A program made the position numbers and the translations under genes. A DNA stretch of 32,000 nucleotides from Opitutales bacterium (GTDB taxonomy: Bacteria; Verrucomicrobiota; Verrucomicrobiia; Opitutales; UBA2995): contig CBDCML010000001.1 of the NCBI GenBank assembly GCA_965218995.1, positions 376,943 through 408,942 on the forward strand, written 5' to 3'. Within the stretch, counting starts at the first letter, position 1. Each line of letters opens with the position of its first letter. Under the pieces are notes generated by a model. That model was not told the origin of the DNA, did not search any database, and saw only the letters and a program-made list of their open reading frames with translations. This document shows positions 1-32,000 of this stretch, one piece after another.

Positions 1-2401
1 CTACCGAGGAGATGAGTTTTTTGCCAAGCCACAGATAGGGGTGGGTGATTTGAATGGAGATGGTCTCACTGATCTTTGTGTTCAGGTGGAACGTGAGATT
101 TTCTATTTCAGGAAAACAGGACTCAATCCTGTAACCTGGGACCGTATAGTAATCCCCAAGCCTGCCTATACCCAATGGTTAAATCGGCCCACAAAGATAG
201 CCGACCTTAATGGAGACGGTCAGTTGGACATTGTGGGGATGCTTATCCATAATTTCGGCGATATGCCTGAAGGCAAGGCCTCTGTTTTCTGGATGGAGTA
301 TACCGGAGATGAACCGAGAGCGGACAATTGGGTCACTCACGTAATCAAATGGTCAAATGGAAACATCACAGGCCAAAACTTTCGGGGGGAGAAATGGGAT
401 CATTTGCGGTTCCTCGACATGGACCGTGACGGAGATTTGGACATCATTGGCAACTGCGAGGAACACTATGACTCGGTACGTCGTACCCAGGTTGGTGTCG
501 TGTGGTTCGAAAACCGACTCAATGAACCGGCCCATATTTTTACCGAAGATAGTAACGGCCTCACAGTTATCGAAGCCGAAAACTACTCAGGTATGAGTGA
601 TGGCGATTGGTTTATTCATACAGATCATGGGGGTTATATTGGAGACGGTTACCTGGTTGAGTTTCACTCGGAGGACCAGCCGGACCAGGATTGGAATCAG
701 AGTGGAGGAGTTAACTACGAAGTTAACCTGGAGGGAGGAGAATACGACATTTGGGTCCGTCGCTGGGTCCCGTCGACTTGGGGAAGACGCGGAGGTGAGA
801 GATCAAATTCCGTTTGGCTCGGAATCAATGGAGAATTGATGGGGGAATCCTTCTTCGACAACAGTTCTGAAGCTTTTGACTGTTGGACTTGGTTGAATCA
901 ATCTGAAGACGGGTTTCCACTTACGGTGTCTCTACCCGAAGGCCGCCACCTAATAAACCTACAGGGCCGTGAAGGTGGATATGCTATTGATCAGATGGTC
1001 ATTGCTCGGGTGGGTGCCAGATTCAATAGAGACGATATCTGCGATTGGCGCAGGCAAAACGCAGTCGTCAAAGTCGGCACACTCGTCCATCCGGACAACG
1101 TTGTCGTCAACAACACCGAGACTCCCTTGTACATCATACTCGGCAGCATTCCCATCCCCGCTGACGAGAAAACCTATGTTCGCGATGTTGATATATTTGT
1201 TGGTCAAAGCGGTTTGCCCATGAATGCGGACGGCACGCCCGTGGACCCGGCTGCGACCATGGAGGGACTCACCACGACGACCGATGACGGGGTCAACAAC
1301 AATTCGATTACCGGCATAGACAGTTGGAACATCAATAATGGCGCTGGACGCAATGCTACATCGCCGGAATGGGAAACCCGCATGTTCGGCGGTTTGGATA
1401 CCTTTACCAGCACCAATGGTGATGGTGTCGATTTTATCATGATCGAACAGGGCGGAAATGACGATTTGTGGGTACAACCGGTATTCCCGGACGGCACAAC
1501 CGGCCAATATGTCAAGCTGGCTGCCGGAGACGGAGTGGAGTGGGGTGACACCGGCCTGGTTACCCTGGACGGAGCGCCCGGCGTTGGCCAAAAGATCGTC
1601 GGTCTCGGCTGGAAAGTTGAAGACCTGCTGGATGCGGAGGGCAATAACCTGGCTCCGGACACGGAAATTTTGGGATTGCGTTTCAATGACCCTGCTCAGG
1701 GGGATGATCCTGCCCTTGATCCATTGTTGGTCGTCGCGGTCATTATTGGTGCGGATACTACACCGCGTGCAGTAGGTGAAATGGCTGGATCCAACACCAT
1801 AACTTTGGCAGCGGATCCTACTGCGGAAATTACAGTGGGCAAGTTGGTCCAGCTTGAGGATGGAACGACAGTGGGTAAGATCGCCTCTATTGCCGGTCGG
1901 GTGCTTACCTTGGAAGCTCCGCTGTCAGTGGCAATTCCAGGTGATGCGCCTCTATCCTTTGTTGACGACGTCTTCCAAATCGAAACTGCAGGAAATGTGG
2001 TCAACATTTCGACCCGTGGCCTGGTGGGCGCCGGTGATGAAGCTATGATTGGTGGTTTCATCGTTTTTGATGGCAATCAAACCGTGGTCGTTTTCGTTAA
2101 AGCCTCCGAGCTCGCTGCAGCTGGGGTGCCCAACTTATTGGCGGACCCGGTGCTCACGATCGAGAATCAGGCAACCGGGGAGGTCATTATGGAAAACGAC
2201 AATTGGGAAGACGATCCTGCTCAGGCCCAATTGATAGCTGACCTTTGGGGAGGTACAGCTCCGCTGACCCTCGGAAGTACCAGTTCAGCCGCTGTTCTTA
2301 CGGTCCCACTAGGCAATTGGACTGCTAGAGTGAACGCCAAAGAAGGAACCGCCTCAGGTGGCATTGCTCAAATCGAAGTATACGAAGTACAAGACAACTA
2401 A
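1..2401 (+). CDS. FG-GAP/VCBS-repeat protein with CBM-like middle domain; 5' end lies outside the window
   Basis: The frame stays open from nt 2 up to the listed GTG at 41, so the gene is 5'-truncated. Repeated Ca-binding FG-GAP loops are present (DLNGDGLTD, DLNGDGQLD, DMDRDGDLD). A 'VIEAENYSG...GDGYLVEF' segment looks carbohydrate-binding. Stop TAA at 2399-2401. Confidence 0.7.
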   Translation, partial: YRGDEFFAKPQIGVGDLNGDGLTDLCVQVEREIFYFRKTGLNPVTWDRIVIPKPAYTQWLNRPTKIADLNGDGQLDIVGMLIHNFGDMPEGKASVFWMEYTGDEPRADNWVTHVIKWSNGNITGQNFRGEKWDHLRFLDMDRDGDLDIIGNCEEHYDSVRRTQVGVVWFENRLNEPAHIFTEDSNGLTVIEAENYSGMSDGDWFIHTDHGGYIGDGYLVEFHSEDQPDQDWNQSGGVNYEVNLEGGEYDIWVRRWVPSTWGRRGGERSNSVWLGINGELMGESFFDNSSEAFDCWTWLNQSEDGFPLTVSLPEGRHLINLQGREGGYAIDQMVIARVGARFNRDDICDWRRQNAVVKVGTLVHPDNVVVNNTETPLYIILGSIPIPADEKTYVRDVDIFVGQSGLPMNADGTPVDPAATMEGLTTTTDDGVNNNSITGIDSWNINNGAGRNATSPEWETRMFGGLDTFTSTNGDGVDFIMIEQGGNDDLWVQPVFPDGTTGQYVKLAAGDGVEWGDTGLVTLDGAPGVGQKIVGLGWKVEDLLDAEGNNLAPDTEILGLRFNDPAQGDDPALDPLLVVAVIIGADTTPRAVGEMAGSNTITLAADPTAEITVGKLVQLEDGTTVGKIASIAGRVLTLEAPLSVAIPGDAPLSFVDDVFQIETAGNVVNISTRGLVGAGDEAMIGGFIVFDGNQTVVVFVKASELAAAGVPNLLADPVLTIENQATGEVIMENDNWEDDPAQAQLIADLWGGTAPLTLGSTSSAAVLTVPLGNWTARVNAKEGTASGGIAQIEVYEVQDN

Positions 2402-2421
2402 GGTTTCTGAACCATCTTAGA

Positions 2422-2934
2422 ACTTTCACTGTTGGCGACGATGGCGCCACCACCCGCATTCCGGCCGGTCTGGGTGATAATACGGGTCACGGCTCTCGTT
2501 ACGACGCCCAGTTGACTCGAGTAGAGGATCATCCCATCCACGCGGGGTTCCCACGCCAATGGGTTGCCGCTGACATCGAAGTCTATCGTTATGCTCGCGG
2601 ACCGGCGGAGAACCTGACCGTATTATCCTATGCCAAAGATCGCGATCTGGACATCAACTTTCCGGTCGAATGGGTGGTGGAATTCGGGCAAGGCCGCGTT
2701 TACAATTCCACGCTGGGTCACGTATGGAAAGACCAATCGGAGCCATTGGGTATACGGTGCGTCGGCTTTCAAACCTTGCTGCCGCGAATCGTTCAGTGGC
2801 TTGCGGGACGTGAAGTGGACAAAACACTTCCGGATGATTTCCCGGATCAGACCTCGGCTCAAATCCGCCCCTACGATGTGTCCATAGGCCGCCAACCTCA
2901 GAGTCAATTCTCCGGCCCCAAACACCCAAACTGA
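2422..2934 (+). pseudogene. ThuA-domain-like gene fragment lacking its N-terminal part
   Basis: The open frame begins right after an in-frame TAG (2419-2421), and the only start candidate is a TTG at 2512. 'HPIHAGFP...VYRY...GQGRVYNSTLGHVW' resembles the C-terminal half of ThuA-like proteins (recognised from memory). The stop TGA lies inside the repeat module CCCAAACTGAAGCATTCCTAATTCC. Confidence 0.4.
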
Positions 2935-3307
2935 AGCATTCCTAATTCCTAATTCGTGAGCATAGCGAACTTCCCTCCCTTCCTCCGCGACCCTCCAATA
3001 AGAAATAGGATAAATAGCCACAAAAGGCACAAAAACACAAAATTGTAGGAGCGGCTTCGACACGCCGTTGCACGTCTCGCCGCTGCATAGCTTTGCGACG
3101 CACGGTAGCAACTTTGCGACGAACGGTGCAACGGCGTGTCGTCAGGATCATGATCAAGATCACGAATTACCTCTGCATGCCACGCCGTAGGCCTTGGCCT
3201 AGACGGGCGCCTTTGCGCCTTTGGCGCTCTTCCCCTCTGTGCGTCCTCCGGGAGCTTTGCCTGCCTGTGCGTCCGCACGCAGACAGGCGAGATCCAACTC
3301 CTAATAC
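2927..3307. repeat. Mosaic of short interspersed repeat modules
   Basis: Contains a CCTAATT heptamer run (2944-2957), a degenerate GGCACAAA-like run (3024-3044), a GTAGGAGCGG REP-like word (3046-) and a GATCATGATCAAGATCACG word. Modules at 3076-3105 and 3255-3277 recur at 29640-29672 (inverted) and 29408-29430. Confidence 0.6.
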
Positions 3308-3351
3308 TGGTCTTCCCCCGATTTTGTGGACACGAACAGCGTAGCGTATGT

Positions 3352-4544
3352 TCATGTTAGGTTATGGTTTTGATTTTGGAAGTGTTTTTGAAGAAATGCT
3401 TCTGGTGAAAGGTATCCCAGGGTGCTGTGCCTTCGACGTTTGTTATAAAAAGTCTCGAGGTAATCGAAGATGGCCAGGCGGGCCTGCTGCTTGGATTCGA
3501 ACACGCCGTTTTGGGGAAAGCATTCGCTTTTGAGGGAGGCAAAGAAGCTCTCGCAAGCGGCGTTGTCGTAACAGTATCCTAGCGCGCTCATGCTCTGAAT
3601 CCAACCAAAGTCGTTCAATTGCTGCCGCACTTGGTGACTGGTATACTGGCAGCCACGATCTGAATGAAAGAGGGCTTTGTGAAAACCTCCCACTCGATTC
3701 CTGGTCTGGTGAAGGGCTGAAACGACCAGACCGGAGGCCAGGCTCTCGGCCACCTTGTAGCCCTGAATTACGCGGCCGAAGAGGTCCATCACGACCGCTA
3801 GATACAACCAGCCTTGCCGAGTGGGGATGTAGGTGATGTCGCTGACCATGATTTGGCCGGGCCCGGTCGGGTCCGGAGCCTCGGCCAGACGGTTGGGCGC
3901 TGGGAGGCTGCGGGGATCCTGCCGGGTCGTCTTGGGCCGGAAGGGGCTACCCCTACAGGCTTTTAGAGCATTTTGCTTCATCAGCCGGGCCACCCGGTTA
4001 ACCGAGCAGCGAAAACCCCGCTGGTTGAGCTCCACGCTCATGCGAGGACTACCGTAACAGCGGGTGTGCCGGTCGGCATGGATCCGTTTGATTTCGCTCA
4101 GGAGGAGCCGATTTTGGCGGCGGCGCGCTCCCGCCTTACCCCTGCGCCATCGGTAATAACCACTCCTGCTCACAGCCAGCGCCTGACAAAGTTCAACCAC
4201 TCTATAGATTGCCCGCATTTGATCGATCAGCGCATACCCAGCTGCGGGTCCTCGGCCAGTATGCTCGCGGCTTTTTTTAAGATCTCTCGCTGGCGACGCA
4301 GGTAAGCGTTTTCCCGGTTTAGCCGACGGATCTCGCGGGCCATCTCTTCGGGATCGTTCAAGGGGCGGGAAAGTCCCTGCTGGTCGGAGGGGTCCCCGAA
4401 GAGATCCTTGCGCCACTTCCTGAGGCTCCCATCGGAAATCCCCAGTTCACGGGCCACCTGCTTGAGGCTGTTGTTACTGTGCAAATAGAGTTCAACGGCT
4501 CGACGTTTGAACTCCTCATCATAGGTTCTGTGGGTTCTTGGCAT
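3352..4544 (-). CDS. IS3-family transposase OrfAB (orfA 4227-4544, orfB frame 3352-4416, -1 frameshift)
   Basis: OrfA is an HTH protein ('EEFKRRAVELY...LKQVARELGIS...LRKW'). OrfB has an rve/DDE core ('SDITYIPT...LAVVMDLF', 'HSDRGCQYTS', 'ESFFASLKSE'). Confidence 0.9.
4272..4278 (-). promoter_or_regulatory. A7 slippery heptamer for programmed -1 ribosomal frameshift (orfA to orfB)
   Basis: The minus strand reads TTA AAA AAA GCC in the orfA frame. A shift to -1 continues as 'KKSREHTGRG...' in the orfB frame. This is the typical IS3 arrangement. Confidence 0.7.
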
Positions 4545-4731
4545 GTCTAATGATCTCTCTCAGACTGCGCTGTTCGTGTCCACAAAATCGGGGGAGGTTC
4601 ATACCTCATCCGTGCCCAACCACGTACCCTGTCCTGCCGTAGCCTCTTGACCTGCGTAGCATTGCGAAGCACGGTTTGGGCGAAGCGGGATCTGTGGTTA
4701 ATCTCTCTCAGCACTTTCAGCCTTTTTAACC

Positions 4732-4787
4732 TTTGTGCCTTTGTGCCTTTGTGCCTTTGTGCCTTTGTGCCTTTGTGCCTTTGTGCC
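4732..4787 (-). repeat. (GGCACAAA)7 octamer tandem array (reads TTTGTGCC on + strand)
   Basis: Seven perfect 8-bp units counted directly. Same unit as the arrays at 24687-24742 and 31538-31721, in opposite orientation. Confidence 0.95.
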
Positions 4788-4803
4788 TTGTCTTTCCTAA
4801 TCC

Positions 4804-6459
4804 CTAGGATTCCGATATGCAATACAGGTAGTCGTGCCCCCGCAGGAACAATTCGTTTTCCACGATGGCAGGTGAGGCGTCGAACCCGTCGCTCAATTTA
4901 TTCTCGGCCACGATCTCAAAGGTATCCGCGTCTTTCAAAACCAGGGTAGTGCCCTCCCGGCCTACCACGTAGATATAACCATTGGCGGCAATGGGGGAGG
5001 CGTAAATCCCCCGGATCCCCTCCAGGGATTCATCGCGGAAAATTTCTTTCCCGGTTTCCGCGTCCAGGCAGGTATAATAGGCGTCGTTACCTTTGTTCAC
5101 GTACAACCTGCCATTGGACAATACGGCCGACGGAACGTAGGGAGCGCTGTGGCGGACACTCCACACTATGGCGTCGGAATCGGACACATCCCCCTTGGCC
5201 GACAACTCGATGGCCTGAATGGATCGTCCCTGATATCCACTCATTACGTAAACCTTATCGTTTCCCACCACGGGTGTGGGGATTACATTGCCGGTCAAGC
5301 CGCTGGCCTCCCATATGAGGTCCCCCGTGGCCGCGTCGTAACTGCGGGTCGCGTTGGTGCCTGGCAATATGACTTGTTGTTGTCCTTCTACTTCCACCAC
5401 CGTGGGGGTCACCCAGGAGGTTCGCTCGTCCCGCTTCACCCTCCAGACCTCCTCGCCGTTGCCTTTATCCAGCGCTATGAGGTAGGATTGCCCCTCGTTA
5501 TCCCAATTGATGAAGAGATGGTCTCCGGCCAGGGCAGGAGAGGCTCCTTCCCCGAAGCCGGCCCGTGACTGGAGGTTGCCCAGGTCTCTCTCCCATTTCA
5601 GGTTACCCTCCAAATCGTAACAATACAAGCCCCTGGACCCGAAGAAGGCATACAAGTGTTCCCCATCCGTAACGGAGGAGGCCGAAGCGAAGCCATTGGT
5701 GGGATGGTGTCCCTCGTGGGGCACTTCCGCCCGGGCCGTTTTTTGCCAGAGCACTTCTCCCGAGGCACGATCCAGCGCCATGACGGAAAATTCCTGCGCC
5801 ACGGTTGGGACGGCTCCTCCACGACCTCCGCGCCCGGGCCCGCCGGCTTGACCCCCACGACCCCCACGACCCCCGCGCTGGCCGCCAAAACTGGCTCGCA
5901 AGGCAGCCCGCTCCTCTTCGTTGAGCTGGCCGTCACCGTCCTTGTCGAAACGCTTGAGCATCTCTTCCCGGTTTTCTCTACCTCCCGGTCCTCCACCGAA
6001 TCCGGCCCCGGCTTCCCCGCCGCGGGCTTGGGCCCCTCCTCGCGGGCGTTCCCCGCGGGCTTGGGCCCCTCCTCGCGGGCGATCATCTCCTGCCTGGACC
6101 TGTCTTTGCGGGCGATCACCTGCCCCGGACAGGGCTCTCCTCTGGGTGTCGACCTGTCCGCTTGGCTCCTCTCCCTGGGGAATGGCGGTGAGCAGAAAAA
6201 TCTGGTCGCCCCATATGATGGGTGTTGCCAACCCGGCCCCGGGGATCCTGGTTTTCCACTTGATATTGGAATCATCGCTCCATTGCAACGGTGGTTTTTC
6301 TCCCTGGACCACCCCGGTTTGGGAATTTCCGCGCCAAGTCGGCCAGGATGCCGTGTCGGCCGCGCTGATCCGGGATGCGAGGCAGAGGAGCAAAGTAAAG
6401 GTAAAAAAGAAGTGGTGCATTACGTTATTCATATTGAGAGGGGATTGGAACATTCTCAT
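4804..6459 (-). CDS. PQQ-like beta-propeller repeat protein with Gly/Arg-rich EF-hand insertion
   Basis: Signal-like N-terminus (FFFTFTLLLCLASRISA). 'WPTWRGN...' and repeated propeller blades ('YVVGREGTLVLKD', 'LYCYDLEGNLKWE'). Low-complexity insert at residues ~95-217 with an EF-hand loop DKDGDGQLNEEE (5911-5946). Confidence 0.75.
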   Translation of the reverse strand: MRMFQSPLNMNNVMHHFFFTFTLLLCLASRISAADTASWPTWRGNSQTGVVQGEKPPLQWSDDSNIKWKTRIPGAGLATPIIWGDQIFLLTAIPQGEEPSGQVDTQRRALSGAGDRPQRQVQAGDDRPRGGAQARGERPRGGAQARGGEAGAGFGGGPGGRENREEMLKRFDKDGDGQLNEEERAALRASFGGQRGGRGGRGGQAGGPGRGGRGGAVPTVAQEFSVMALDRASGEVLWQKTARAEVPHEGHHPTNGFASASSVTDGEHLYAFFGSRGLYCYDLEGNLKWERDLGNLQSRAGFGEGASPALAGDHLFINWDNEGQSYLIALDKGNGEEVWRVKRDERTSWVTPTVVEVEGQQQVILPGTNATRSYDAATGDLIWEASGLTGNVIPTPVVGNDKVYVMSGYQGRSIQAIELSAKGDVSDSDAIVWSVRHSAPYVPSAVLSNGRLYVNKGNDAYYTCLDAETGKEIFRDESLEGIRGIYASPIAANGYIYVVGREGTTLVLKDADTFEIVAENKLSDGFDASPAIVENELFLRGHDYLYCISES

Positions 6460-6978: not shown

Positions 6979-8171
6979 TCATGTTAGGTTATGGTTTTGA
7001 TTTTGGAAGTGTTTTTGAAGAAATGCTTCTGGTGAAAGGTATCCCAGGGTGCTGTGCCTTCGACGTTTGTTATAAAAAGTCTCGAGGTAATCGAAGATGG
7101 CCAGGCGGGCCTGCTGCTTGGATTCGAACACGCCGTTTTGGGGAAAGCATTCGCTTTTGAGGGAGGCAAAGAAGCTCTCGCAAGCGGCGTTGTCGTAACA
7201 GTATCCTAGCGCGCTCATGCTCTGAATCCAACCAAAGTCGTTCAATTGCTGCCGCACTTGGTGACTGGTATACTGGCAGCCACGATCTGAATGAAAGAGG
7301 GCTTTGTGAAAACCTCCCACTCGATTCCTGGTCTGGTGAAGGGCTGAAACGACCAGACCGGAGGCCAGGCTCTCGGCCACCTTGTAGCCCTGAATTACGC
7401 GGCCGAAGAGGTCCATCACGACCGCTAGATACAACCAGCCTTGCCGAGTGGGGATGTAGGTGATGTCGCTGACCATGATTTGGCCGGGCCCGGTCGGGTC
7501 CGGAGCCTCGGCCAGACGGTTGGGCGCTGGGAGGCTGCGGGGATCCTGCCGGGTCGTCTTGGGCCGGAAGGGGCTACCCCTACAGGCTTTTAGAGCATTT
7601 TGCTTCATCAGCCGGGCCACCCGGTTAACCGAGCAGCGAAAACCCCGCTGGTTGAGCTCCACGCTCATGCGAGGACTACCGTAACAGCGGGTGTGCCGGT
7701 CGGCATGGATCCGTTTGATTTCGCTCAGGAGGAGCCGATTTTGGCGGCGGCGCGCTCCCGCCTTACCCCTGCGCCATCGGTAATAACCACTCCTGCTCAC
7801 AGCCAGCGCCTGACAAAGTTCAACCACTCTATAGATTGCCCGCATTTGATCGATCAGCGCATACCCAGCTGCGGGTCCTCGGCCAGTATGCTCGCGGCTT
7901 TTTTTAAGATCTCTCGCTGGCGACGCAGGTAAGCGTTTTCCCGGTTTAGCCGACGGATCTCGCGGGCCATCTCTTCGGGATCGTTCAAGGGGCGGGAAAG
8001 TCCCTGCTGGTCGGAGGGGTCCCCGAAGAGATCCTTGCGCCACTTCCTGAGGCTCCCATCGGAAATCCCCAGTTCACGGGCCACCTGCTTGAGGCTGTTG
8101 TTACTGTGCAAATAGAGTTCAACGGCTCGACGTTTGAACTCCTCATCATAGGTTCTGTGGGTTCTTGGCAT
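6979..8171 (-). CDS. IS3-family transposase OrfAB (orfA 7854-8171, orfB frame 6979-8043)
   Basis: Translation identical to copy 1. Confidence 0.9.
7899..7905 (-). promoter_or_regulatory. A7 slippery site (-1 frameshift), IS copy 2
   Basis: Run of 7 T on the + strand at the orfA/orfB overlap, as in copy 1. Confidence 0.7.
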
Positions 8172-8708: not shown

Positions 8709-10439
8709 CTAGGTGGCGATCCAGACAAAGACGGCGATCAGGCTTATCACCCCGATCCAACCGGCGGTGAAACCGAGGACGGAAACTTTGGAAGGCATGG
8801 GGATTTCCAGGCCGAATGCGGTGGTGAGCATTTTACGTTGGGCGGGCAATACCCCTTCGGGCAATCGGCAGGGGGTGACAATTTCCTCACCCTGAGCGAT
8901 CGGCGTCCGGGTGAGTTGATAGTAGCGATCGAGCCGTTCTTTGTCTACCGGGCGGGTGATAAGACTGACCACAATTCCGGCAGCGATGGCGGAGACCATG
9001 TAGAAAACAATGAGCCAGGGCTCATACATCTCGAGATTTCCCGGCGGTCCATGGGTGAGGTGCAGCGCTTCGGCAAAGGGGAGAGAATTCAACCATTCGG
9101 CAAAAAAGGTTCTTTCGGCCAACCACCAGGCCGCGAAGGCGGTCAAGGTGCTGGCCCATGCCCCGGAGGGGGTGGCTTTCCTCCAAAGCAATCCCATCCA
9201 AAAGGCGATCCCCATCATGGGCAGGATCTTGAGCCAGATCATGAGGCCGGCTATAACCCCGGACAGCCAGAAGGCGAAAACCACCCCGGCAACAACAATG
9301 GCGACCGCTCCGAGGCGACCGACCCACAGGTAATGCGGGATGCTTTCGTTCTGGCGAAAGGGTCGATACAGGTTTTCGGTGAAAAGCGCCGCGGCCGATA
9401 TCATGAAGGAATCACAGGAACTCATGATCCCGGCCAACAGGGATGCGATGAATACCCCCAACAGACCGACCGGGAGAAACTGCCGGGCCATATCGCCGTA
9501 AACGCTGTCGGGATGGATCGAATCCAGTTGCACGCCCTGCTGAATATACAATGCCAGCGCCCCGATACCGGTCAGGCACCAGGCTACCGTGCAAATGCGC
9601 TTGATGAAGGTGCCAGTCATGTAGCCGAGGCGTCCTTCCATTTCCGTTTTTCCAGCGGCCGAATTCCCCATGGCGCTGGGGAGAGCCACGATGCCGACAA
9701 TGACCTGGAAGGAAAGCATGAGGATCCAAAACAGTCCGATCTCACCGGGCGCGACCAGAGAGAGCTTCTCCTGATGATCCACGGCCAGGGTGGCTTTGAC
9801 CCCGCTCAGCCCTCCCGCCGCGGCCAGGACGTAGGGCAACAGCATGAAGGAGAAAAGCAGGGTGAGCACCCCTTGGATAAAGTCTGTCACAACCGCCGCC
9901 CCCAGCCCTCCGGCCAAGCCATATGTGACGAATAAAACCGAAGTGACGACGATGGCCAGATTGGCGTCGATAGCTCCGCCCGTGCCGGCATCGATCAATG
10001 CGCCCGTGCCCTTCAACAACAGGCCGATCTTGGCAATCATGCTGAGAATGCCAACCAGGGAAAACAGGATCGATACGCTTCGGTCATAACGGAGTTCAAA
10101 CACGTCGGCCGTAGTGGTGGCCCGGAACCTCCGCATGATGGGGGCAATGATCCAGAAAAATGGCGTAACCAGGAGCCACAACCACTGGTACCAGATTCCG
10201 GAGAGGCCGTTGCGCACCGTGCCCGAGGCCACCGTTACGGCCTGGTCGGAGGCGGTGCCCGTGCCAAAGGCATGCATGATCATCATGACTTTTCCGAAGC
10301 GCCGGGGCATGAAAAAATCGGCCGACCGTTTCACCTGCTTGCCCGTGTGAACCCCCAGGAGGGTGATCCCGAGCAGGTAGACTACAATTACCGTACCATC
10401 TAGCCAGTGGATGGTGGCGATGGGGAAGGAAAGGGACAC
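8709..10439 (-). CDS. Sodium:solute symporter (SSS) family transporter
   Basis: 576-aa polytopic membrane protein. The N-terminus 'VVYLLGITLLGVHTGKQVKRSADFFMPRRFG' is typical of SSS-family transporters. Confidence 0.8.
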   Translation of the reverse strand: MSLSFPIATIHWLDGTVIVVYLLGITLLGVHTGKQVKRSADFFMPRRFGKVMMIMHAFGTGTASDQAVTVASGTVRNGLSGIWYQWLWLLVTPFFWIIAPIMRRFRATTTADVFELRYDRSVSILFSLVGILSMIAKIGLLLKGTGALIDAGTGGAIDANLAIVVTSVLFVTYGLAGGLGAAVVTDFIQGVLTLLFSFMLLPYVLAAAGGLSGVKATLAVDHQEKLSLVAPGEIGLFWILMLSFQVIVGIVALPSAMGNSAAGKTEMEGRLGYMTGTFIKRICTVAWCLTGIGALALYIQQGVQLDSIHPDSVYGDMARQFLPVGLLGVFIASLLAGIMSSCDSFMISAAALFTENLYRPFRQNESIPHYLWVGRLGAVAIVVAGVVFAFWLSGVIAGLMIWLKILPMMGIAFWMGLLWRKATPSGAWASTLTAFAAWWLAERTFFAEWLNSLPFAEALHLTHGPPGNLEMYEPWLIVFYMVSAIAAGIVVSLITRPVDKERLDRYYQLTRTPIAQGEEIVTPCRLPEGVLPAQRKMLTTAFGLEIPMPSKVSVLGFTAGWIGVISLIAVFVWIAT

Positions 10440-10539
10440 TTTGGACGGGTGGCTAGACTCGGCTGCTCAGCGGTCGGTTGATCCGATCGGCAATGCAAGT
10501 GACCATAAAACACCATATCCCGGAAAATAAATGAAAAAA

Positions 10540-10652
10540 GTAACAACTCAGGTCTCCATAGCCTGGATCGTCCGAAAGTATGAGAATGAAATGGGGCTTT
10601 GCTTCAAAGATAAAGGCAGAAGGATAATAATAAGAAACGAGAAAATTTTCAT
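10540..10652 (-). pseudogene. Sulfatase N-terminal fragment (signal peptide plus 'ILILSDDPGYGDLSCY' motif), frameshifted and truncated
   Basis: ATG at 10650-10652 (minus strand) gives 'MKIFSFLIIILLP...'. After a frame change, 'KPHFILILSDDPGYGDLSCY' matches the conserved sulfatase N-terminal metal-binding block. No sulfatase sequence follows. Confidence 0.5.
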
Positions 10653-10809
10653 GGGATGGTGATCGAGAGAACTGTAGGAGGGGGTTTATCCCCCGATTGC
10701 GGGGAGGCCATTTGGAAGATCGGGGGATAAACCCCCTCCTACAGTTTCGTAATATGTTATCAATATAACATCCATGCGGACGATTGTTCAGGATACCTGA
10801 GTAGTTACT
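10653..10809 (+). repeat. REPIN-like element copy 1 (hairpin core 10672-10744)
   Basis: CTGTAGGAGGGGGTTTATCCCCCGAT, a 20-nt spacer, then the reverse complement ATCGGGGGATAAACCCCCTCCTACAG. About 160 bp are conserved with the copies at 20707-20865 (inverted) and 29142-29298. Confidence 0.85.
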
Positions 10810-11280
10810 GAAAAAAGGCATAATGGGCTGAAAATTCCCTATTTGGTCAGAGCCATGGCAATCAGGGTGAAATATGGGATAAATCCACAATATGGCTTGA
10901 AATTCGGCGGTGATTTCTATCAGGTCGGAACGTTGCAAACGCCATTTTCTCCCCGGTTTTTTGAGGGCGCATCGGTGGGCAATTTGAATGAATGAGGTTA
11001 AGGTTCCCAGTGGCTCATTTTTTGGAATACTACGTGCGAAAGAGACTTCTCACCGTTCTGCTGACTCTTTTTATCCCGGCCCATCTGCCAGCCGTGGTGG
11101 GGCCCCGATCGGAGGCGGTCGATCCGGGACAATATGGACAGGTCTTTTATGTCGATATAGGGTCCGGGGACGACGTGGTTGGGGATGGCTCGAAATCCAA
11201 ACCCTGGGCCAGCATCATTCACGCGCTGGAGCATTCTGGTCTTCCCCCGATTTTGTGGACACGAACAGCGTAGCGTATGT

Positions 11281-12473
11281 TCATGTTAGGTTATGGTTTT
11301 GATTTTGGAAGTGTTTTTGAAGAAATGCTTCTGGTGAAAGGTATCCCAGGGTGCTGTGCCTTCGACGTTTGTTATAAAAAGTCTCGAGGTAATCGAAGAT
11401 GGCCAGGCGGGCCTGCTGCTTGGATTCGAACACGCCGTTTTGGGGAAAGCATTCGCTTTTGAGGGAGGCAAAGAAGCTCTCGCAAGCGGCGTTGTCGTAA
11501 CAGTATCCTAGCGCGCTCATGCTCTGAATCCAACCAAAGTCGTTCAATTGCTGCCGCACTTGGTGACTGGTATACTGGCAGCCACGATCTGAATGAAAGA
11601 GGGCTTTGTGAAAACCTCCCACTCGATTCCTGGTCTGGTGAAGGGCTGAAACGACCAGACCGGAGGCCAGGCTCTCGGCCACCTTGTAGCCCTGAATTAC
11701 GCGGCCGAAGAGGTCCATCACGACCGCTAGATACAACCAGCCTTGCCGAGTGGGGATGTAGGTGATGTCGCTGACCATGATTTGGCCGGGCCCGGTCGGG
11801 TCCGGAGCCTCGGCCAGACGGTTGGGCGCTGGGAGGCTGCGGGGATCCTGCCGGGTCGTCTTGGGCCGGAAGGGGCTACCCCTACAGGCTTTTAGAGCAT
11901 TTTGCTTCATCAGCCGGGCCACCCGGTTAACCGAGCAGCGAAAACCCCGCTGGTTGAGCTCCACGCTCATGCGAGGACTACCGTAACAGCGGGTGTGCCG
12001 GTCGGCATGGATCCGTTTGATTTCGCTCAGGAGGAGCCGATTTTGGCGGCGGCGCGCTCCCGCCTTACCCCTGCGCCATCGGTAATAACCACTCCTGCTC
12101 ACAGCCAGCGCCTGACAAAGTTCAACCACTCTATAGATTGCCCGCATTTGATCGATCAGCGCATACCCAGCTGCGGGTCCTCGGCCAGTATGCTCGCGGC
12201 TTTTTTTAAGATCTCTCGCTGGCGACGCAGGTAAGCGTTTTCCCGGTTTAGCCGACGGATCTCGCGGGCCATCTCTTCGGGATCGTTCAAGGGGCGGGAA
12301 AGTCCCTGCTGGTCGGAGGGGTCCCCGAAGAGATCCTTGCGCCACTTCCTGAGGCTCCCATCGGAAATCCCCAGTTCACGGGCCACCTGCTTGAGGCTGT
12401 TGTTACTGTGCAAATAGAGTTCAACGGCTCGACGTTTGAACTCCTCATCATAGGTTCTGTGGGTTCTTGGCAT
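11281..12473 (-). CDS. IS3-family transposase OrfAB (orfA 12156-12473, orfB frame 11281-12345)
   Basis: Translation identical to copies 1 and 2. Confidence 0.9.
12201..12207 (-). promoter_or_regulatory. A7 slippery site (-1 frameshift), IS copy 3
   Basis: Run of 7 T on the + strand at the orfA/orfB overlap. Confidence 0.7.
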
Positions 12474-23289: not shown

Positions 23290-24683
23290 ATGACGAGAAT
23301 TGATTCCATTCGGGCTCGAACCATTACCCTGCCAGCCGATTACCGTAATGCCACGGTCAGTTTTGCCGGGATGACGGGATCGCTTGTGGCCACCCTGGCC
23401 AGAGGGGATGATGGATCCATTGAGACCGGTTACGGCTTCGGGTCCATCGGCCGTTACGCCCAGACTGAAATGATCCTGGAACGCTTTGCCCCGCGCATTT
23501 TGCGAGCGGATCCTTCTGCATACGACCGGGATGGATTCCCGGATCCCGTTCGGTTGAATCGGCTCATGCGCCGCAACGAAAAGCAAGGGGGTCATGGCGA
23601 GCGATCGGTCGCCATCGGAGCGATCGACATGGCGGCCTGGGATCTCTACGCCAAACTCCATAAGAAACCGCTCTTTCTCTGCTTGGCGGAGCGTTTTAAC
23701 GGGGCCCAATTCGATCCGGCGGTCGAGTTGTATGCGGCGGGGGGATACTATTATGATGAAGGCGGACCGACCCGGTTGCGGCGGGAGTTGGAGGATTATC
23801 TCGAAGCGGGATTTCGGTCGATCAAGATCAAAATTGGCGGCGCATCCCTGGAAAGGGATCTGCAACGAATAGAAACCGCCATAGCCGCGGTGGGTTCTCG
23901 GGTTTTGTAGCGGTAGACGCGAACGGGCGCTTCAGCGGGGAGGAGGCGCTGGAATGGGGCAGGGCCCTGGAGGATTTGAACCTGCGTTGGTATGAGGAGC
24001 CGGTCGATCCACTGGATTTGGAGGCTTACAAACAATTGGGTTCAGCTTATGGGCCGCCCTTGGCAACCGGGGAGAACCTCTTCTCCCTGCAGGAGGTAAA
24101 AAACCTGATCCGTTACGGGGGGTTGCGTCCGGATCGGGATATTCTGCAGATGGATCCGGGCCTGGCTTATGGGGTCCCGGAATATTTGGACATCCTCCAT
24201 GCCTTGGAAACTGCCGGTTGGTCGCGGAGAAGCTGTTTCCCACATGGAGGGAATTTGTTCAACCTTCACATCGCCCAAGGCCTGCAGATCGGCGGAACGG
24301 AAGTCTATCCCGGAGTTTTTGCCCCCCTCGGCGGATTTGGGGAGTCGGTTGAAATCGAGAATGGACGGGCCTCCGCTCCCGACTTTTTCCAGATCGATGC
24401 GGTTTGGGAAAGTTTCCGTTGGATCAAGCGCCATTACACGGATCTCGGGTTTTCCGCAAGGGCCGACATTTTGGAGAACAACGCGGGTCACAATTATAAT
24501 CGCACCCAGCGGGAGGCGGCCCTTCGTTGGTTCAATCAGTGGTTGAAGGGACGGGTGGAAACCATACGGGAGCCGAGGATCGATTTGTTTACCCCGGAAG
24601 AGCTTTGGGCGACCCCCGGCGGACAGGTTTTGGAGGTAGAAGGCGCCAGGGGGCGCCAATTAGGAATTAGGAATTGGGAATGA
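23290..24683 (+). pseudogene. Enolase-superfamily (mandelate racemase/muconate lactonizing type) gene with internal frameshift and foreign 3' end
   Basis: Part 1 (23290-23910) ends '...IETAIAAVGSRVL*'. The family continues in another frame from 23910: 'AVDANGRFSGEEALEW...WYEEPVDP...ATGENLFS...PHGGN...VEIENGRASAPD'. After ~24385 the ORF switches to an alpha/beta-hydrolase-like C-terminus ('AGHNY...AALRWFNQWLKG') and ends in the heptamer repeat (LGIRNWE*). Confidence 0.7.
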
Positions 24684-24686
24684 AAA

Positions 24687-24742
24687 GGCACAAAGGCACA
24701 AAGGCACAAAGGCACAAAGGCACAAAGGCACAAAGGCACAAA
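24687..24742 (+). repeat. (GGCACAAA)7 octamer tandem array
   Basis: Seven perfect units, immediately upstream of the type-B four-helix-bundle remnant. Confidence 0.95.
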
Positions 24743-24823
24743 GTAAGTGGGGTTAAAGCATATCGAGATTCGATCGTTTGGCAAAAGGGGATCGACCTGG
24801 TGACAATAATTTATGAACTGAGC
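24743..24823 (+). pseudogene. Remnant (27 codons) of a type-B four-helix-bundle gene, start codon lost
   Basis: 'VSGVKAYRDSIVWQKGIDLVTIIYELS' compares with the intact 'MSGVRTYRDLIVWQKGIDFVTKIYGLT' at 31722. ATG is replaced by GTA, and homology ends at about 24823. Confidence 0.75.
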
Positions 24824-24874
24824 GAGGACCGGCTGCAGGCAAAGCGGCAAGTACCATAATTGATGATGAACCCA

Positions 24875-28986: not shown

Positions 28987-29385
28987 TAGTAGGATGGCTC
29001 CGCCTTCATGGATTACGACGTGACAGGTCCGCCTACGCTCAAGGCTACGACGTGACGGGCCTGACTGGATTTGCTCTCGGCAAGATCGCCAAGAAGGGGA
29101 AGAATGCGCCAAGGGCGCGAATTAGGAATGCTTCAGTTTGGGGGATGGTGATTGAGAGAACTGTAGGAGGGGGTTTATCCCCCGATTGCGGTGAGGCCAT
29201 TTGGAAGATCGGGGGATAAACCCCCTCCTACAGTTGCGAAATAGGTTATCAATAAAACATCCATGCGAACGATTGTTTAAGATACCTGAGTAGTTACTTT
29301 TATAGGATTCATAAGCACAAAAACACAAAATTCCCAGATCCTGTACAACCTGTAATCTTGATCGTGATCTCTCACCCTCGTTCCT
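28987..29385. repeat. Right arm of the imperfect ~400-bp inverted repeat (partner 20614-21024)
   Basis: See the left arm. One ~40-bp module (28987-29027, TAGTAGG..CCGCCTTCATGGATTACG..TGACA) has the same absolute orientation as its homologue at 20936-20973, so it is flipped and relocated relative to the rest of the repeat. Confidence 0.8.
29142..29298 (+). repeat. REPIN-like element copy 3 (hairpin core 29161-29233)
   Basis: Same arms and spacer as copy 1, with one spacer substitution. Confidence 0.85.
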
Positions 29386-29905: not shown

Positions 29906-30529
29906 ATGCCCTTAGAACCCATAACCCTAGTGTCGGGTCGCGCCCTTTATGTTCCCGGGGACGACATCGATACCGATCAGATCATTCCGGCCCGTTTCCT
30001 CAGGTGTATTACCTTCGACGGTCTGGGTGAATTCCTCTTTTACGACGTGCGCAAGGAGGGAAAGGGAAGGCACCGGCCCCATCCCCTGGACGACCCTCGG
30101 TTTGCCGGAGCCAGCATCATGATCAGCGGGAATAATTTCGGCTGTGGAAGCTCCCGGGAACATGCCCCCCAAGCCATCTCCAAAGCGGGTTTTGCCGCTA
30201 TCATTGCCGAGGGATTTGGCGAAATATTCTTCGGAAACAGCGCCACCCTCGGGCTTCCTTGCCTCCGGGCTTCCCGGCAGGATATTCAATCCATCGCCGC
30301 CGCCGTGCAAGCGGACCCCTCCATCGAGATAACCGCCGATGTGGTCAACGGGGAAATTCGCTTTGGGGGCCGGATCATTCCCTGTCAACTGCCCGAGGCG
30401 GCCCGTGCGGGGTTCATTGCCGGCACTTGGGACCCGATTGCCGAGCTTCTGCAGGGCGACTCCGCCATCCATGCCATGGCCCGGTCCCTTCCCTACAACG
30501 ACCCCGCTGGGGTCGGAATTAGGAATTAG
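29906..30529 (+). CDS. leuD: 3-isopropylmalate dehydratase small subunit
   Basis: 'DDIDTDQIIPARFL', 'GNNFGCGSSREHAPQAI' and 'GFGEIFFGN' are classic LeuD/aconitase swivel-domain blocks. The last codons (G-I-R-N) and the stop lie in the AATTAGG heptamer array. Confidence 0.85.
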   Translation: MPLEPITLVSGRALYVPGDDIDTDQIIPARFLRCITFDGLGEFLFYDVRKEGKGRHRPHPLDDPRFAGASIMISGNNFGCGSSREHAPQAISKAGFAAIIAEGFGEIFFGNSATLGLPCLRASRQDIQSIAAAVQADPSIEITADVVNGEIRFGGRIIPCQLPEAARAGFIAGTWDPIAELLQGDSAIHAMARSLPYNDPAGVGIRN

Positions 30530-30544
30530 GAATTAGGAATGAAG
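30515..30544 (+). repeat. Left arm of the four-helix-bundle cassette: (AATTAGG)n leader containing the ATG
   Basis: GGAATTAGGAATTAGGAATTAGGAATGAAG. Positions 30529-30544 are the perfect reverse complement of 30919-30934. Confidence 0.9.
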
Positions 30545-30916
30545 GTTGAGAATCCAATACAGGCCAAATCTTACGCGTTTGCTTTGCGGATGGTTAAGCT
30601 GTATCGGTATCTCTGTGCTGAGAAAAATGAATACTTGGTTTCCAAGCAGGTCGCGCGTAGTGGCACATCGATCGGCGCTAACGTAGAAGAAGCCATTGGG
30701 GGACAATCGAAAAAGGATTTCCTTTCCCAGATGGGCATCGCCTACAAGGAAGCCCGAGAGACGCATTACTGGCTTCGGCTGCTTCGCGATTCCAATATTC
30801 TGGACGCCAAACAGGCCAAATCCATTATGGAAGAATGCGAAGAGCTTTTGAAACTTTCCGGCACCATCATCCGAACCACAAAACCCAAAGTAAAGGAAGG
30901 CGCCGACGGCGCCTAA
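30539..30916 (+). CDS. Four-helix-bundle protein (23S rRNA intervening-sequence protein / Avd-like family), type A
   Basis: 125 aa. 'SKQVARSGTSIGANVEEAIGGQSKKDFLSQMGIAYKEARETHYWLRLL' matches the hallmark of the TIGR02436/PF05635 family (from memory). Confidence 0.85.
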   Translation: MKVENPIQAKSYAFALRMVKLYRYLCAEKNEYLVSKQVARSGTSIGANVEEAIGGQSKKDFLSQMGIAYKEARETHYWLRLLRDSNILDAKQAKSIMEECEELLKLSGTIIRTTKPKVKEGADGA

Positions 30917-30957
30917 TTCTTCATTCCTAATTCCTGATTGGCGCGCCTTAGCGCGCC
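30913..30957 (+). repeat. Right arm of the cassette (CTTCATTCCTAATTCC) plus GC hairpin GGCGCGC-CTTA-GCGCGCC
   Basis: 16-nt perfect complement of the left arm at 30919-30934. A 7-bp GC stem at 30940-30946 / 30951-30957 has no following T-run. Confidence 0.85.
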
Positions 30958-30964
30958 TCGCGCC

Positions 30965-31534
30965 ATGATTCAAATTATCGAAGGTTCGGGGATCTTCATC
31001 TACCCCCTCGGGTTGTGTTCCCTTTTGGGCATTTTCGTGATTTTTGAGCGGGGCATATCTTTGAGAATCGCCAACATTTTGCCCAAATCCCTGGTGGATA
31101 AGGTAATTGTCGGGCAAATCGACGATCCCCCGGAAAAGGAATCCGTCCTGGGACGCATTCTTGAATTTTTTAACCAACGTTCCCAGGATGCCGATAAAAT
31201 CCGGGCATTCACCAACCTCGAAGTCAACCGGATGGAACGGGGCCTGGTCATCCTGGAAATTGTCACCGGGGCGGCTCCCCTTTTGGGCCTGTTGGGAACG
31301 GTCACCGGTTTGGTCCAGGTATTTGCCAATATGTCCTTTGAAACCGGCGTGCCCGAACAAACTGCCTTCATCTCCGGTGTGGCCCTGGCCCTGACCACCA
31401 CCATGATTGGCCTTTCCGTGGCTATTCCCAGCTTGGTGGCCTACAATATCTATCAACGCCGTATCGATACCTATACGGTTCAACTCGATGCCATGATCGA
31501 ACGACTCCTTTCCCTCAACCAACCCAATTCCTGA
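30965..31534 (+). CDS. MotA/TolQ/ExbB proton-channel family protein
   Basis: 'IFIYPLGLCSLLGIFVIFER' and 'APLLGLLGTVTGLVQVF...ALTTTMIGLSVAIPSLVAYN' are typical ExbB/TolQ blocks. The ATG at 30965 is preferred over the upstream TTG at 30938, which lies in the repeat. Confidence 0.78.
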   Translation: MIQIIEGSGIFIYPLGLCSLLGIFVIFERGISLRIANILPKSLVDKVIVGQIDDPPEKESVLGRILEFFNQRSQDADKIRAFTNLEVNRMERGLVILEIVTGAAPLLGLLGTVTGLVQVFANMSFETGVPEQTAFISGVALALTTTMIGLSVAIPSLVAYNIYQRRIDTYTVQLDAMIERLLSLNQPNS

Positions 31535-31537
31535 TTA

Positions 31538-31721
31538 GGCACAAAGGCACAAAGGCACAAAGGCACAAAGGCACAAAGGCACAAAGGCACAAAGGCACAA
31601 AGGCACAAAGGCACAAAGGCACAAAGGCACAAAGGCACAAAGGCACAAAGGCACAAAGGCACAAAGGCACAAAGGCACAAAGGCACAAAGGCACAAAGGC
31701 ACAAAGGCACAAAGGCACAAA
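31538..31721 (+). repeat. (GGCACAAA)23 perfect octamer tandem array
   Basis: 184 bp, equal to 23 uninterrupted units. It starts 3 nt after the ExbB-family stop and ends exactly at the ATG of the next gene. Confidence 0.97.
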
Positions 31722-32000
31722 ATGAGTGGGGTCAGAACATATCGAGATTTGATCGTTTGGCAAAAGGGAATCGACTTCGTCACAAAAATCTATGGACTGA
31801 CCCGCAATTATCCTGCCTCAGAAGTCTACGGCTTAACTTCACAAATCCGCCGCTGCTCTGTTTCGATTCCAAGCAACGTTGCAGAAGGTTACGGACGAAG
31901 GTCCACTCAAGAATACATTCGGTTCCTTCAAATCGCGTCCGGCTCCTTATTTGAACTTCAAACCCAGTTGCAGATTTCCGCCAATCTTGATTTCATCGGG
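31722..32000 (+). CDS. Four-helix-bundle protein (23S rRNA IVS / Avd-like family), type B; 3' end outside the window
   Basis: Not in the supplied ORF track because it is open-ended. My translation is 'MSGVRTYRDLIVWQKGIDFVTKIYGLTRNYPASEVYGLTSQIRRCSVSIPSNVAEGYGRRSTQEYIRFLQIASGSLFELQTQLQISANLDFIG', the canonical TIGR02436 pattern. Confidence 0.85.
   Translation, partial: MSGVRTYRDLIVWQKGIDFVTKIYGLTRNYPASEVYGLTSQIRRCSVSIPSNVAEGYGRRSTQEYIRFLQIASGSLFELQTQLQISANLDFIG

Follow-up and report, generated by a model that had tools for sequence, protein, structure and literature searches.

Does a long array of perfect octamers placed directly before a start codon act as a switch, lie there by chance, or form one part of a larger element? 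The question is raised by a 32,000-nt stretch of DNA (hereafter, the window; contig CBDCML010000001.1 of assembly GCA_965218995.1, positions 376,943 to 408,942, forward strand) from the assembly of a verrucomicrobial, Opitutales-like genome, in which 23 copies of the unit GGCACAAA (31538..31721, + strand) separate exbB (30965..31534, +; MotA/ExbB family, PF01618 E 5.5e-26) from a gene for a four-helix-bundle protein that we term type B (31722..32000, +). A second, separate assembly of the same organism, 99.8% identical to the window (L001; ENA ERZ25067264, a 470-kb contig) has exbB as a called gene (10427-10996) and carries the type-B gene in full. We consider it likely that the array is the 5' arm, lengthened by expansion, of a hairpin cassette built like an intervening sequence (IVS)—a purine-rich arm, a promoterless open reading frame (ORF) of the PF05635 family, and a complementary, pyrimidine-rich arm. 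The cassette sits in sense orientation within a leuD-exbB-exbD gene string, where it is an insertion relative to close relatives, and the same architecture, with differing units, surrounds relatives of the type-B gene across many phyla.

The layout at the array is simple: the exbB stop codon (TGA, 31532-31534) is followed by TTA, by 23 perfect units, and by the ATG at 31722, which touches the last unit. A preliminary description of this DNA had reported uninterrupted units filling the spacer from stop to start, and this was borne out, with Tandem Repeats Finder (TRF) giving 100% matches and 23.1 copies over 184 nt. A probe of two GGCACAAA units matched the window 34 times, compared to 0.00 matches expected from 100 shuffles, and the array recurs, with 24 units, in the independent assembly L001; it is thus not an assembly artefact. 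Because the + strand of the array contains no T, sigma-70-type hexamers (-10 and -35) are impossible within it, and the Shine-Dalgarno-like signal amounts to a weak AAGG tetramer in each unit, in agreement with the earlier statement that the spacer holds neither a conventional promoter nor a conventional Shine-Dalgarno sequence. The array was rejected as a promoter on these grounds, together with an unmet sigma-54 GG-N10-GC spacing and the lack of any sigma-70-like site found on the + strand from leuD to exbD, and as a clustered regularly interspaced short palindromic repeat (CRISPR) locus, given that its units are contiguous and have no spacers. Considered as a simple sequence repeat (SSR) contingency locus, it shows a polymorphic repeat number in the two assemblies compared, but it is intergenic, rather than lying in an ORF or between promoter hexamers, has no T, and has no frame running through it.

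Translation of the array, as an N-terminal extension (GTKAQRHK)n of the four-helix-bundle protein, is barely credible. The array is open in the frame of the gene, and the database homologues P0094, P0102, and P0007 were called with such extensions; however, it contains no ATG, GTG, or TTG and was rejected for this lack of a start codon, an in-frame stop precedes it in L001, its frame relation shifts with each unit change, and the conserved core of the protein begins at the ATG. The ‘KGTKAQRHK’-type N-terminal extensions of several database proteins are translated arms.

The type-B gene comprises 123 codons in full (L001 11192-11563), of which the window holds the first 93 before the gene runs off its end. 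Judged by profile matches, its product clearly belongs to PF05635/TIGR02436/NF008911, scoring 116 bits against PF05635 (E 9.8e-34; cut-off 33.8), 132 bits against TIGR02436 (cut-off 24), and 153.6 bits against NF008911 (cut-off 137). It also matches Xanthomonas XCC0516 (PDB 2GSC, five deposited chains; E 4e-26), a homopentameric four-helix-bundle toroid (PMC4990558). Comparison of the ORF with its relatives gave ratios of nonsynonymous to synonymous substitution (dN/dS) of 0.12-0.23 at synonymous distances (dS) of 0.33-0.78, indicating that the protein is under purifying selection. Avd of diversity-generating retroelements has a related four-helix-bundle fold and family, as reflected in weak matches of the type-B protein to PF22296 (22 bits, below the cut-off of 40) and NF033474; with 28.6 bits against a cut-off of 80 for the latter, identity with Avd was rejected. 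No reverse transcriptase domain was found among the genes of the window, and no template/variable repeats were found nearby.

The preliminary description had taken the array for a cassette arm and had predicted a complementary (TTTGTGCC)n arm past the end of the window, to be sought 100-200 bp beyond position 32000. On L001, three (TTTGTGCC)2.5-3 blocks, 88-96% complementary to the array, indeed lie 3' of the gene, 66-400 nt beyond its stop codon in the 470-nt spacer that leads to exbD. They occupy L001 positions 11630-11651, 11773-11799, and 11959-11985, equivalent to ~32160-32181, ~32303-32329, and ~32489-32515 in window numbering (the first thus about 160-180 bp past the window end), and take the forms CCTTTGTGCCTTTGTGCC and CCTTTGTGCCYCTGTGCCTTTGTGCC; the second and third exist because a segment of ~185 nt has been duplicated. 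In the minimum-free-energy fold, each of the three blocks pairs with part of the GGCACAAA array and outer heptamers of the ATTCCT/AGGAAT type pair as well, such that the entire 1-kb spacer from exbB to exbD is predicted to form a nested stem around the ORF.

We compared this locus with the corresponding sites of relatives. In the closest of those listed here, a 4.5-Mb circular contig (L197) whose ExbB is 94% identical, leuD and exbB are separated by 21 nt and exbB and exbD by only 11 nt, with no cassette, which identifies the cassette as an insertion. No cassette is present in L201 either (ExbB identity 72%; spacers of 20 nt and 19 nt, respectively), and L198-L200 (87%) have longer spacers of 342 nt and 191 nt and no PF05635 gene. 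Comparison of the filled with the empty junction shows that the last codons of exbB, along with 23 nt of spacer, have been replaced, so that the ExbB C-terminus reads ...QPNS* here and ...QPNIDL* in L197; insertions have rewritten the final codons of both leuD and exbB, and the two stop codons now lie within repeat-derived sequence.

The cassette is also found at other loci, each time between co-directional host neighbours and with the same octamer unit. In L203, whose ORF product shows 92% amino-acid identity, the order is an ADH stop codon, GAAAGAAAA, (GGCACAAA)7, the ORF from ATG to TGA, ACC, (CTTTGTGC)~5.5, AATTT, and the ATG of an SSF transporter gene, and the fold has a closing stem of ~45 bp (z -9.15). 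L204 (80%) has at least six GGCACAAA units touching the ATG and four complementary units ~100 nt past the stop. In L202 (80%), the cassette lies between two acyl-CoA dehydrogenase genes, in a genome whose exbB-exbD site is empty, and its ORF is interrupted by a palindromic element resembling repetitive extragenic palindromic (REP) sequences. Across these loci the arm unit is exactly GGCACAAA even though the ORFs have diverged to a dS of 0.33-0.78, which implies selection on the arms or concerted evolution.

These properties recall the S23p IVS in 23S rRNA of Coxiella burnetii and Leptospira. There, too, a PF05635 ORF lies in sense orientation within the loop that a long stem of complementary flanks closes, has no promoter of its own and a weak Shine-Dalgarno sequence, and is distributed sporadically; for PF05635 elements of the IVS type, such a distribution suggests horizontal transfer. 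In Coxiella, the complementary borders of the IVS form a stem that is cut by RNase III, the ORF is in sense with a poor Shine-Dalgarno sequence, and 2-3 GACAGAT heptamers, variable in number among strains, stand directly before the S23p ATG (PMC4990558). The present locus likewise combines a stable stem enclosing the ORF (in the type-B cassette, in a second, type-A cassette described below, and in L203), a PF05635 ORF on the same strand as leuD, exbB, and exbD, and a variable number of short units directly upstream of the start, although the units have 8 rather than 7 nt. Two differences stand out: the host transcript is a protein-coding operon (exbB-exbD for type B, leuD-exbB for type A) instead of rRNA, and the 5' arm has grown to 23-24 units while the 3' arm has been triplicated by the 185-nt duplication. 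With the cassette lying between exbB and exbD, and with no Rfam rRNA in the window or L001, we do not class it among the rRNA IVSs but see in it an element of that kind housed in an mRNA operon. At Rfam gathering thresholds, no known RNA family matched the cassette, and the only matches were to unrelated pieces of a group II intron.

On the cassette-arm reading, read-through from the host operon would transcribe the cassette, and its arms would pair in the transcript as a duplex of 20-45 bp that closes the ORF in a loop. RNase III would then be expected to cut the duplex, by analogy with the rRNA IVSs of Coxiella, Leptospira, and Salmonella, for which cleavage is experimental, and with the hmw1A leader considered below; such cuts would free the RNA of the ORF and split the exbB message from that of exbD. 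Arms made of tandem units could pair in many registers, and hence pairing would be expected to outlast slippage. As to spread, our guess is that identical repeat arms recombine with arm-only hairpins already in place.

How general is this architecture? Scanning metagenome contigs with an alignment of type-B relatives yielded 80 loci with 44-62% identity, whose upstream flanks were locally aligned to the reverse-complemented downstream flanks (score of at least 30). Inverted arms were present at 46 of 78 loci (59%), compared to 0 of 78 for both gene bodies and shuffles and 3 of 148 (2%) complete neighbouring ORFs—an association with four-helix-bundle genes that is not random, as the preliminary description had anticipated. 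Nearly all of the loci share a common plan, in which an arm of tandem 7-9-nt units ends between a few and ~25 nt upstream of the start and its reverse complement follows the stop at a median distance of 4 nt. The arm unit itself varies by locus (GGCACAAA, AGTTTCAA, GGGAATA, AGAGGTT, GGTGTCGA, CAGTGAA, and AGGGAAAAG), with a repeat period of 7 or 8 where periodicity is strong. RNA duplex energies reached z < -3 at 35 of 75 loci, and the last 60 nt upstream were purine-rich (>0.6) at 55 of 75 and pyrimidine-rich at one. Neighbours were predominantly on the same strand, both upstream (63/70) and downstream (50/58), at median gaps of 77 nt and 64 nt, and none of the 40 related loci tested was located in rRNA. 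Viral contigs held only two relatives in 2.9 million, both with arms. One metagenome-assembled genome (MAG; L012, OZ242383.1) departs from the single-cassette plan, with five near-identical PF05635 genes of 115 aa on one strand within 4.5 kb (positions 900-5300) and nearby GGCACAAA-type arrays oriented opposite to the usual arms.

Turning from genes to arrays, representative genomes of many phyla contained runs of at least three GGCACAAA units in more than 114 stretches, and a PF05635 ORF was present at 7 of 114 such genome loci; as markers of four-helix-bundle genes in other phyla, the arrays are thus mostly negative. The intergenic regions of the genome studied here are, moreover, mosaics of several repeat modules. 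Both observations would fit a lineage-wide family of intergenic SSRs, with a role of its own or none, that merely happens to lie beside the gene. Precedents are the heptamer families GGGAATC of Xanthomonas and GGGGAYT of Nostoc (PMC4692102) and TAACTGA of Beggiatoaceae (PMC4679880)—intergenic arrays of variable length that, like those described here, often form convergent pairs capable of folding into stem-loops (as in Xanthomonas; PMC4692102) or end beside start codons (as in Beggiatoaceae; PMC4679880). The papers on these families draw no link to PF05635 and propose G-quadruplexes or a post-transcriptional regulatory network (PMC4692102, PMC4679880), whereas GGCACAAA has no G-tracts. We regard a free-standing repeat family as an improbable explanation for the array before the type-B gene, given the gulf in frequency of matched inverted arms between PF05635 relatives and neighbouring ORFs, and given that the arms travel with the ORF and are absent from the empty site of the 94%-identical relative.

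The arrays that lack the gene are themselves informative. A complementary block lay within 600 nt downstream of 29 of 129 arrays and upstream of 5, an asymmetry indicating that many are arm-only hairpins of the form (GGCACAAA)n-loop-(TTTGTGCC)n. Their prevailing lack of a PF05635 ORF, together with the gene-less derivatives, implies that the arms outlive the ORF or exist without it. A conserved stretch of 47 nt, corresponding to the first 15 type-B codons, often comes after the array in Opitutales MAGs, with other repeat modules behind it, and the junctions of these mini-cassettes are identical across loci and genomes, which suggests that non-autonomous derivatives have proliferated. Gene-less mini-cassettes were seen in L031, L038, L044, L089, L093, and L096, with modules such as ...GACTCTCGCAAAG... 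and ...CGCGCCGGGCGCG....

Several findings count against the cassette-arm reading, to which the scarcity of PF05635 ORFs beside GGCACAAA arrays in other genomes belongs as well. The two arms are grossly unequal: 184 nt face three blocks of ~20-27 nt, and a downstream arm that falls far short of 23 units leaves most of the array without a pairing partner. Among the related genes, 32 of 78 lack strong arms at the score threshold. Neither a target-site duplication, on comparison of the filled and empty sites, nor a mobility enzyme was seen, and the cassettes have no linked integrase or transposase. Finally, mismatches between arms comprised 65 that are G:U-compatible and 86 of the A:C type (p 0.10); with no excess of G:U over A:C, complementarity appears to be either recent or kept at the DNA level, and shows no visible mark of selection in the sense RNA.

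This last result also speaks for a DNA-level element, in which the arms would be sites of recombination or hairpin formation (cruciform or single-strand) that mobilise the cassette and RNA pairing would be incidental, as with attC sites or the terminal repeats of MITEs (miniature inverted-repeat transposable elements). The presence of the cassette at several loci, the dispersal of gene-less mini-versions with identical junctions in Opitutales genomes, and the constancy of the GGCACAAA unit during ORF divergence point in the same direction. Correia elements of Neisseria, palindromes of the MITE/REP type, lie in operon spacers, are co-transcribed, and are cut by RNase III. Dispersed inverted repeats and gene-less mini-versions are shared with MITE/REP elements, but the arms here are built of short tandem units, no duplication was seen at the filled versus the empty junction, and the conserved ORF is not a transposase. 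Against mobilisation at the DNA level stand, in addition to the lack of a linked integrase or transposase, the orientation bias relative to upstream neighbours (63 of 70) and the consistent placement of the purine-rich arm at the 5' side, neither of which a symmetric DNA site would need. We therefore judge this explanation possible but rather doubtful.

The length of the array poses a separate problem. Over the 11.4 kb that could be compared between L001 and the window, there were seven differences—two substitutions, two 1-nt indels, and three changes in repeat-unit number—making the arrays the fastest-changing sequence in the comparison. The main array differs by one unit (23 versus 24), a second array at 24687-24742 has 7 units in the window and 16 plus one variant unit in L001, and an AATTAGG block (24658..24681) differs by one unit. 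The earlier claim of ongoing slippage is supported by these differences. As typical arms have 5-7 units, 23-24 units represent expansion of one arm; the lack of a G:U excess and the unpaired bulk of the 184-nt array lead us to regard the extra length as, most likely, a recent and neutral product of slippage.

Slippage of this kind could in principle operate a switch or rheostat, in which unit number alters expression of the four-helix-bundle gene or of exbD through leader length or hairpin geometry, an explanation compatible with the array being a cassette arm. Unit number does differ between assemblies and the array touches the ATG, and parallels exist: in Haemophilus influenzae, hmw1A expression varies in inverse proportion to the count of ATCTTTC units in its 5' untranslated region, where the units form one arm of a hairpin cut by RNase III (PMC12721329), and heptamer number varies in Coxiella (PMC4990558). 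Here, as in hmw1A, an SSR of variable number is predicted to form one arm of a long transcript hairpin, but the hmw1A hairpin belongs to another gene family, lies in a 5' untranslated region with its own promoter, encloses no ORF, and is no cassette. The array has no promoter elements and no frame runs through it (the exbB stop lies upstream and no start codon inside), related cassettes make do with 5-7 units, and arrays also occur beside no gene. A copy-number switch is thus unlikely, although the extra length might additionally tune expression in the manner of the hmw1A heptamer arm.

More broadly, we tentatively propose, as a generalization that may well prove too wide, that PF05635 genes and their tandem-repeat arms make up a single, widespread class of ‘intervening’ cassettes that lack promoters and dwell in operons, inserted in sense into any transcribed spacer and cut out by RNase III, of which the rRNA IVSs are only the most visible landing site. 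Were this true, the pentameric, Avd-like protein would work on behalf of its own element, by binding the arms, by protection, or in mobility. Where bacterial rRNA IVSs come from, how they move, and what purpose they serve have been questions since about 1990; Ralph and McClelland are said to have proposed that the IVS ORF serves mobility, and Warrier et al. (2016) reportedly still called its function unknown. Now that a filled site is at hand, with its counterpart empty in a close relative and further copies at other loci, the IVS question becomes testable.

The cassette-arm reading would also make several earlier reports easier to understand, among them those on the Xanthomonas and Beggiatoaceae heptamers, and may account for some bacterial families of intergenic heptamer and octamer repeats that have lacked an explanation. 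The same ORF occupies scattered rRNA insertion sites in bacteria of the Candidate Phyla Radiation (PMC11270868), and 23S_rRNA_IVP genes have been seen wedged between cas genes, for example cmr3 and cmr2 (PMC3936711; PMC10910872), these two CRISPR gene-discovery studies giving 23S_rRNA_IVP an association with cas loci or with CRISPR arrays. Our results suggest that this association reflects passive insertion into operons or repeat arms mistaken for arrays; under the general proposal above, the 23S_rRNA_IVP-cas operon ‘association’ (PMC3936711, PMC10910872) would be passive insertion. Caution is warranted, in that PF05635 genes in cas or other operons need not be functional partners. None of these earlier reports connects tandem-repeat arms with PF05635 cassettes, and no description of repeat-armed PF05635 cassettes outside rRNA was found in the literature searched, with most subscription journals outside its scope. 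We see the element as a cassette of the IVS type that lies outside rRNA and has one hyper-expanded arm, and its generality across phyla adds interest beyond the single array.

The window holds a second cassette of the same plan just upstream of exbB. Its type-A four-helix-bundle gene (30539..30916, +; PF05635 E 1.2e-25, TIGR02436 E 3e-29) is flanked by a 5' arm, (GGAATTA)3.7 (30515..30540, +), and a complementary, imperfect 3' arm, (CCTAATT)4 (30912..30939, +), both detected by TRF and in the sequence and paired in the fold, whose closing stem has a z of -5.25. The 5' arm contains the stop codon of the upstream host gene, a leuD-like gene recognised by its aconitase C-terminal domain (29906..30529, +). 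The product of this gene is 207 aa long, compared to 198 aa in L197, L198, and L201, and the nine added codons end in the heptamer arm.

Two further GGCACAAA arrays of seven units each had been reported in the window, at 24687-24742 (+) and 4732-4787 (-), and both are present and perfect by TRF and probe; each of the three arrays in the window starts immediately behind the stop of a same-strand gene. The array at 24687..24742, directly after the stop of an enolase-superfamily gene and preceded by the (AATTAGG)3.4 heptamer block noted above (+; TRF, sequence), belongs to a decayed type-B cassette as its 5' arm. The gene claimed to be decaying behind it survives as a truncated 5' remnant of its first 29 codons (24743..24829, +; tblastn 65.5% identity over 29 aa, E 3e-9). 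The array at 4732..4787, directly after the stop of a minus-strand PQQ/beta-propeller gene, belongs to a gene-less nest whose interior is interrupted by an insertion sequence (IS) of the IS3 family, beyond which lies a weak complementary block (3019-3050).

Single C residues are missing from the window relative to L001 at 23898 and 25892. At the former position, the enolase-superfamily gene, a single gene of 513 aa in L001, is split into two ORFs (23290-23910 and 23976-24683), the cause being a frameshift or else an error in the assembly of the window. The group II intron matches mentioned above comprise domains D1-D4 (RF02003; 6563-6710) and V/VI (RF00029; 8483-8577), ~1.8 kb apart on the + strand. 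Three IS3-family copies with rve and HTH_Tnp_1 ORFs lie at ~3316-4597, 6979-8171, and 11281-12473 (all -); one of them stands between the intron domains, in place of a reverse transcriptase ORF, and the intron seems to be ORF-less or IS-hit. Dispersed repeats of ~70-300 nt with 91-94% identity occur in the window and L001 (20635-20936 versus 29083-29370, inverted; 10653-10809; 4632-4703) and bear no relation to the octamer arrays, and a REP-like palindromic element (CTGTAGGAGSGGCTTTACGCCSCGAT...) recurs in L202 (~2840-2930), L089, L093, and the window (~3045-3070).

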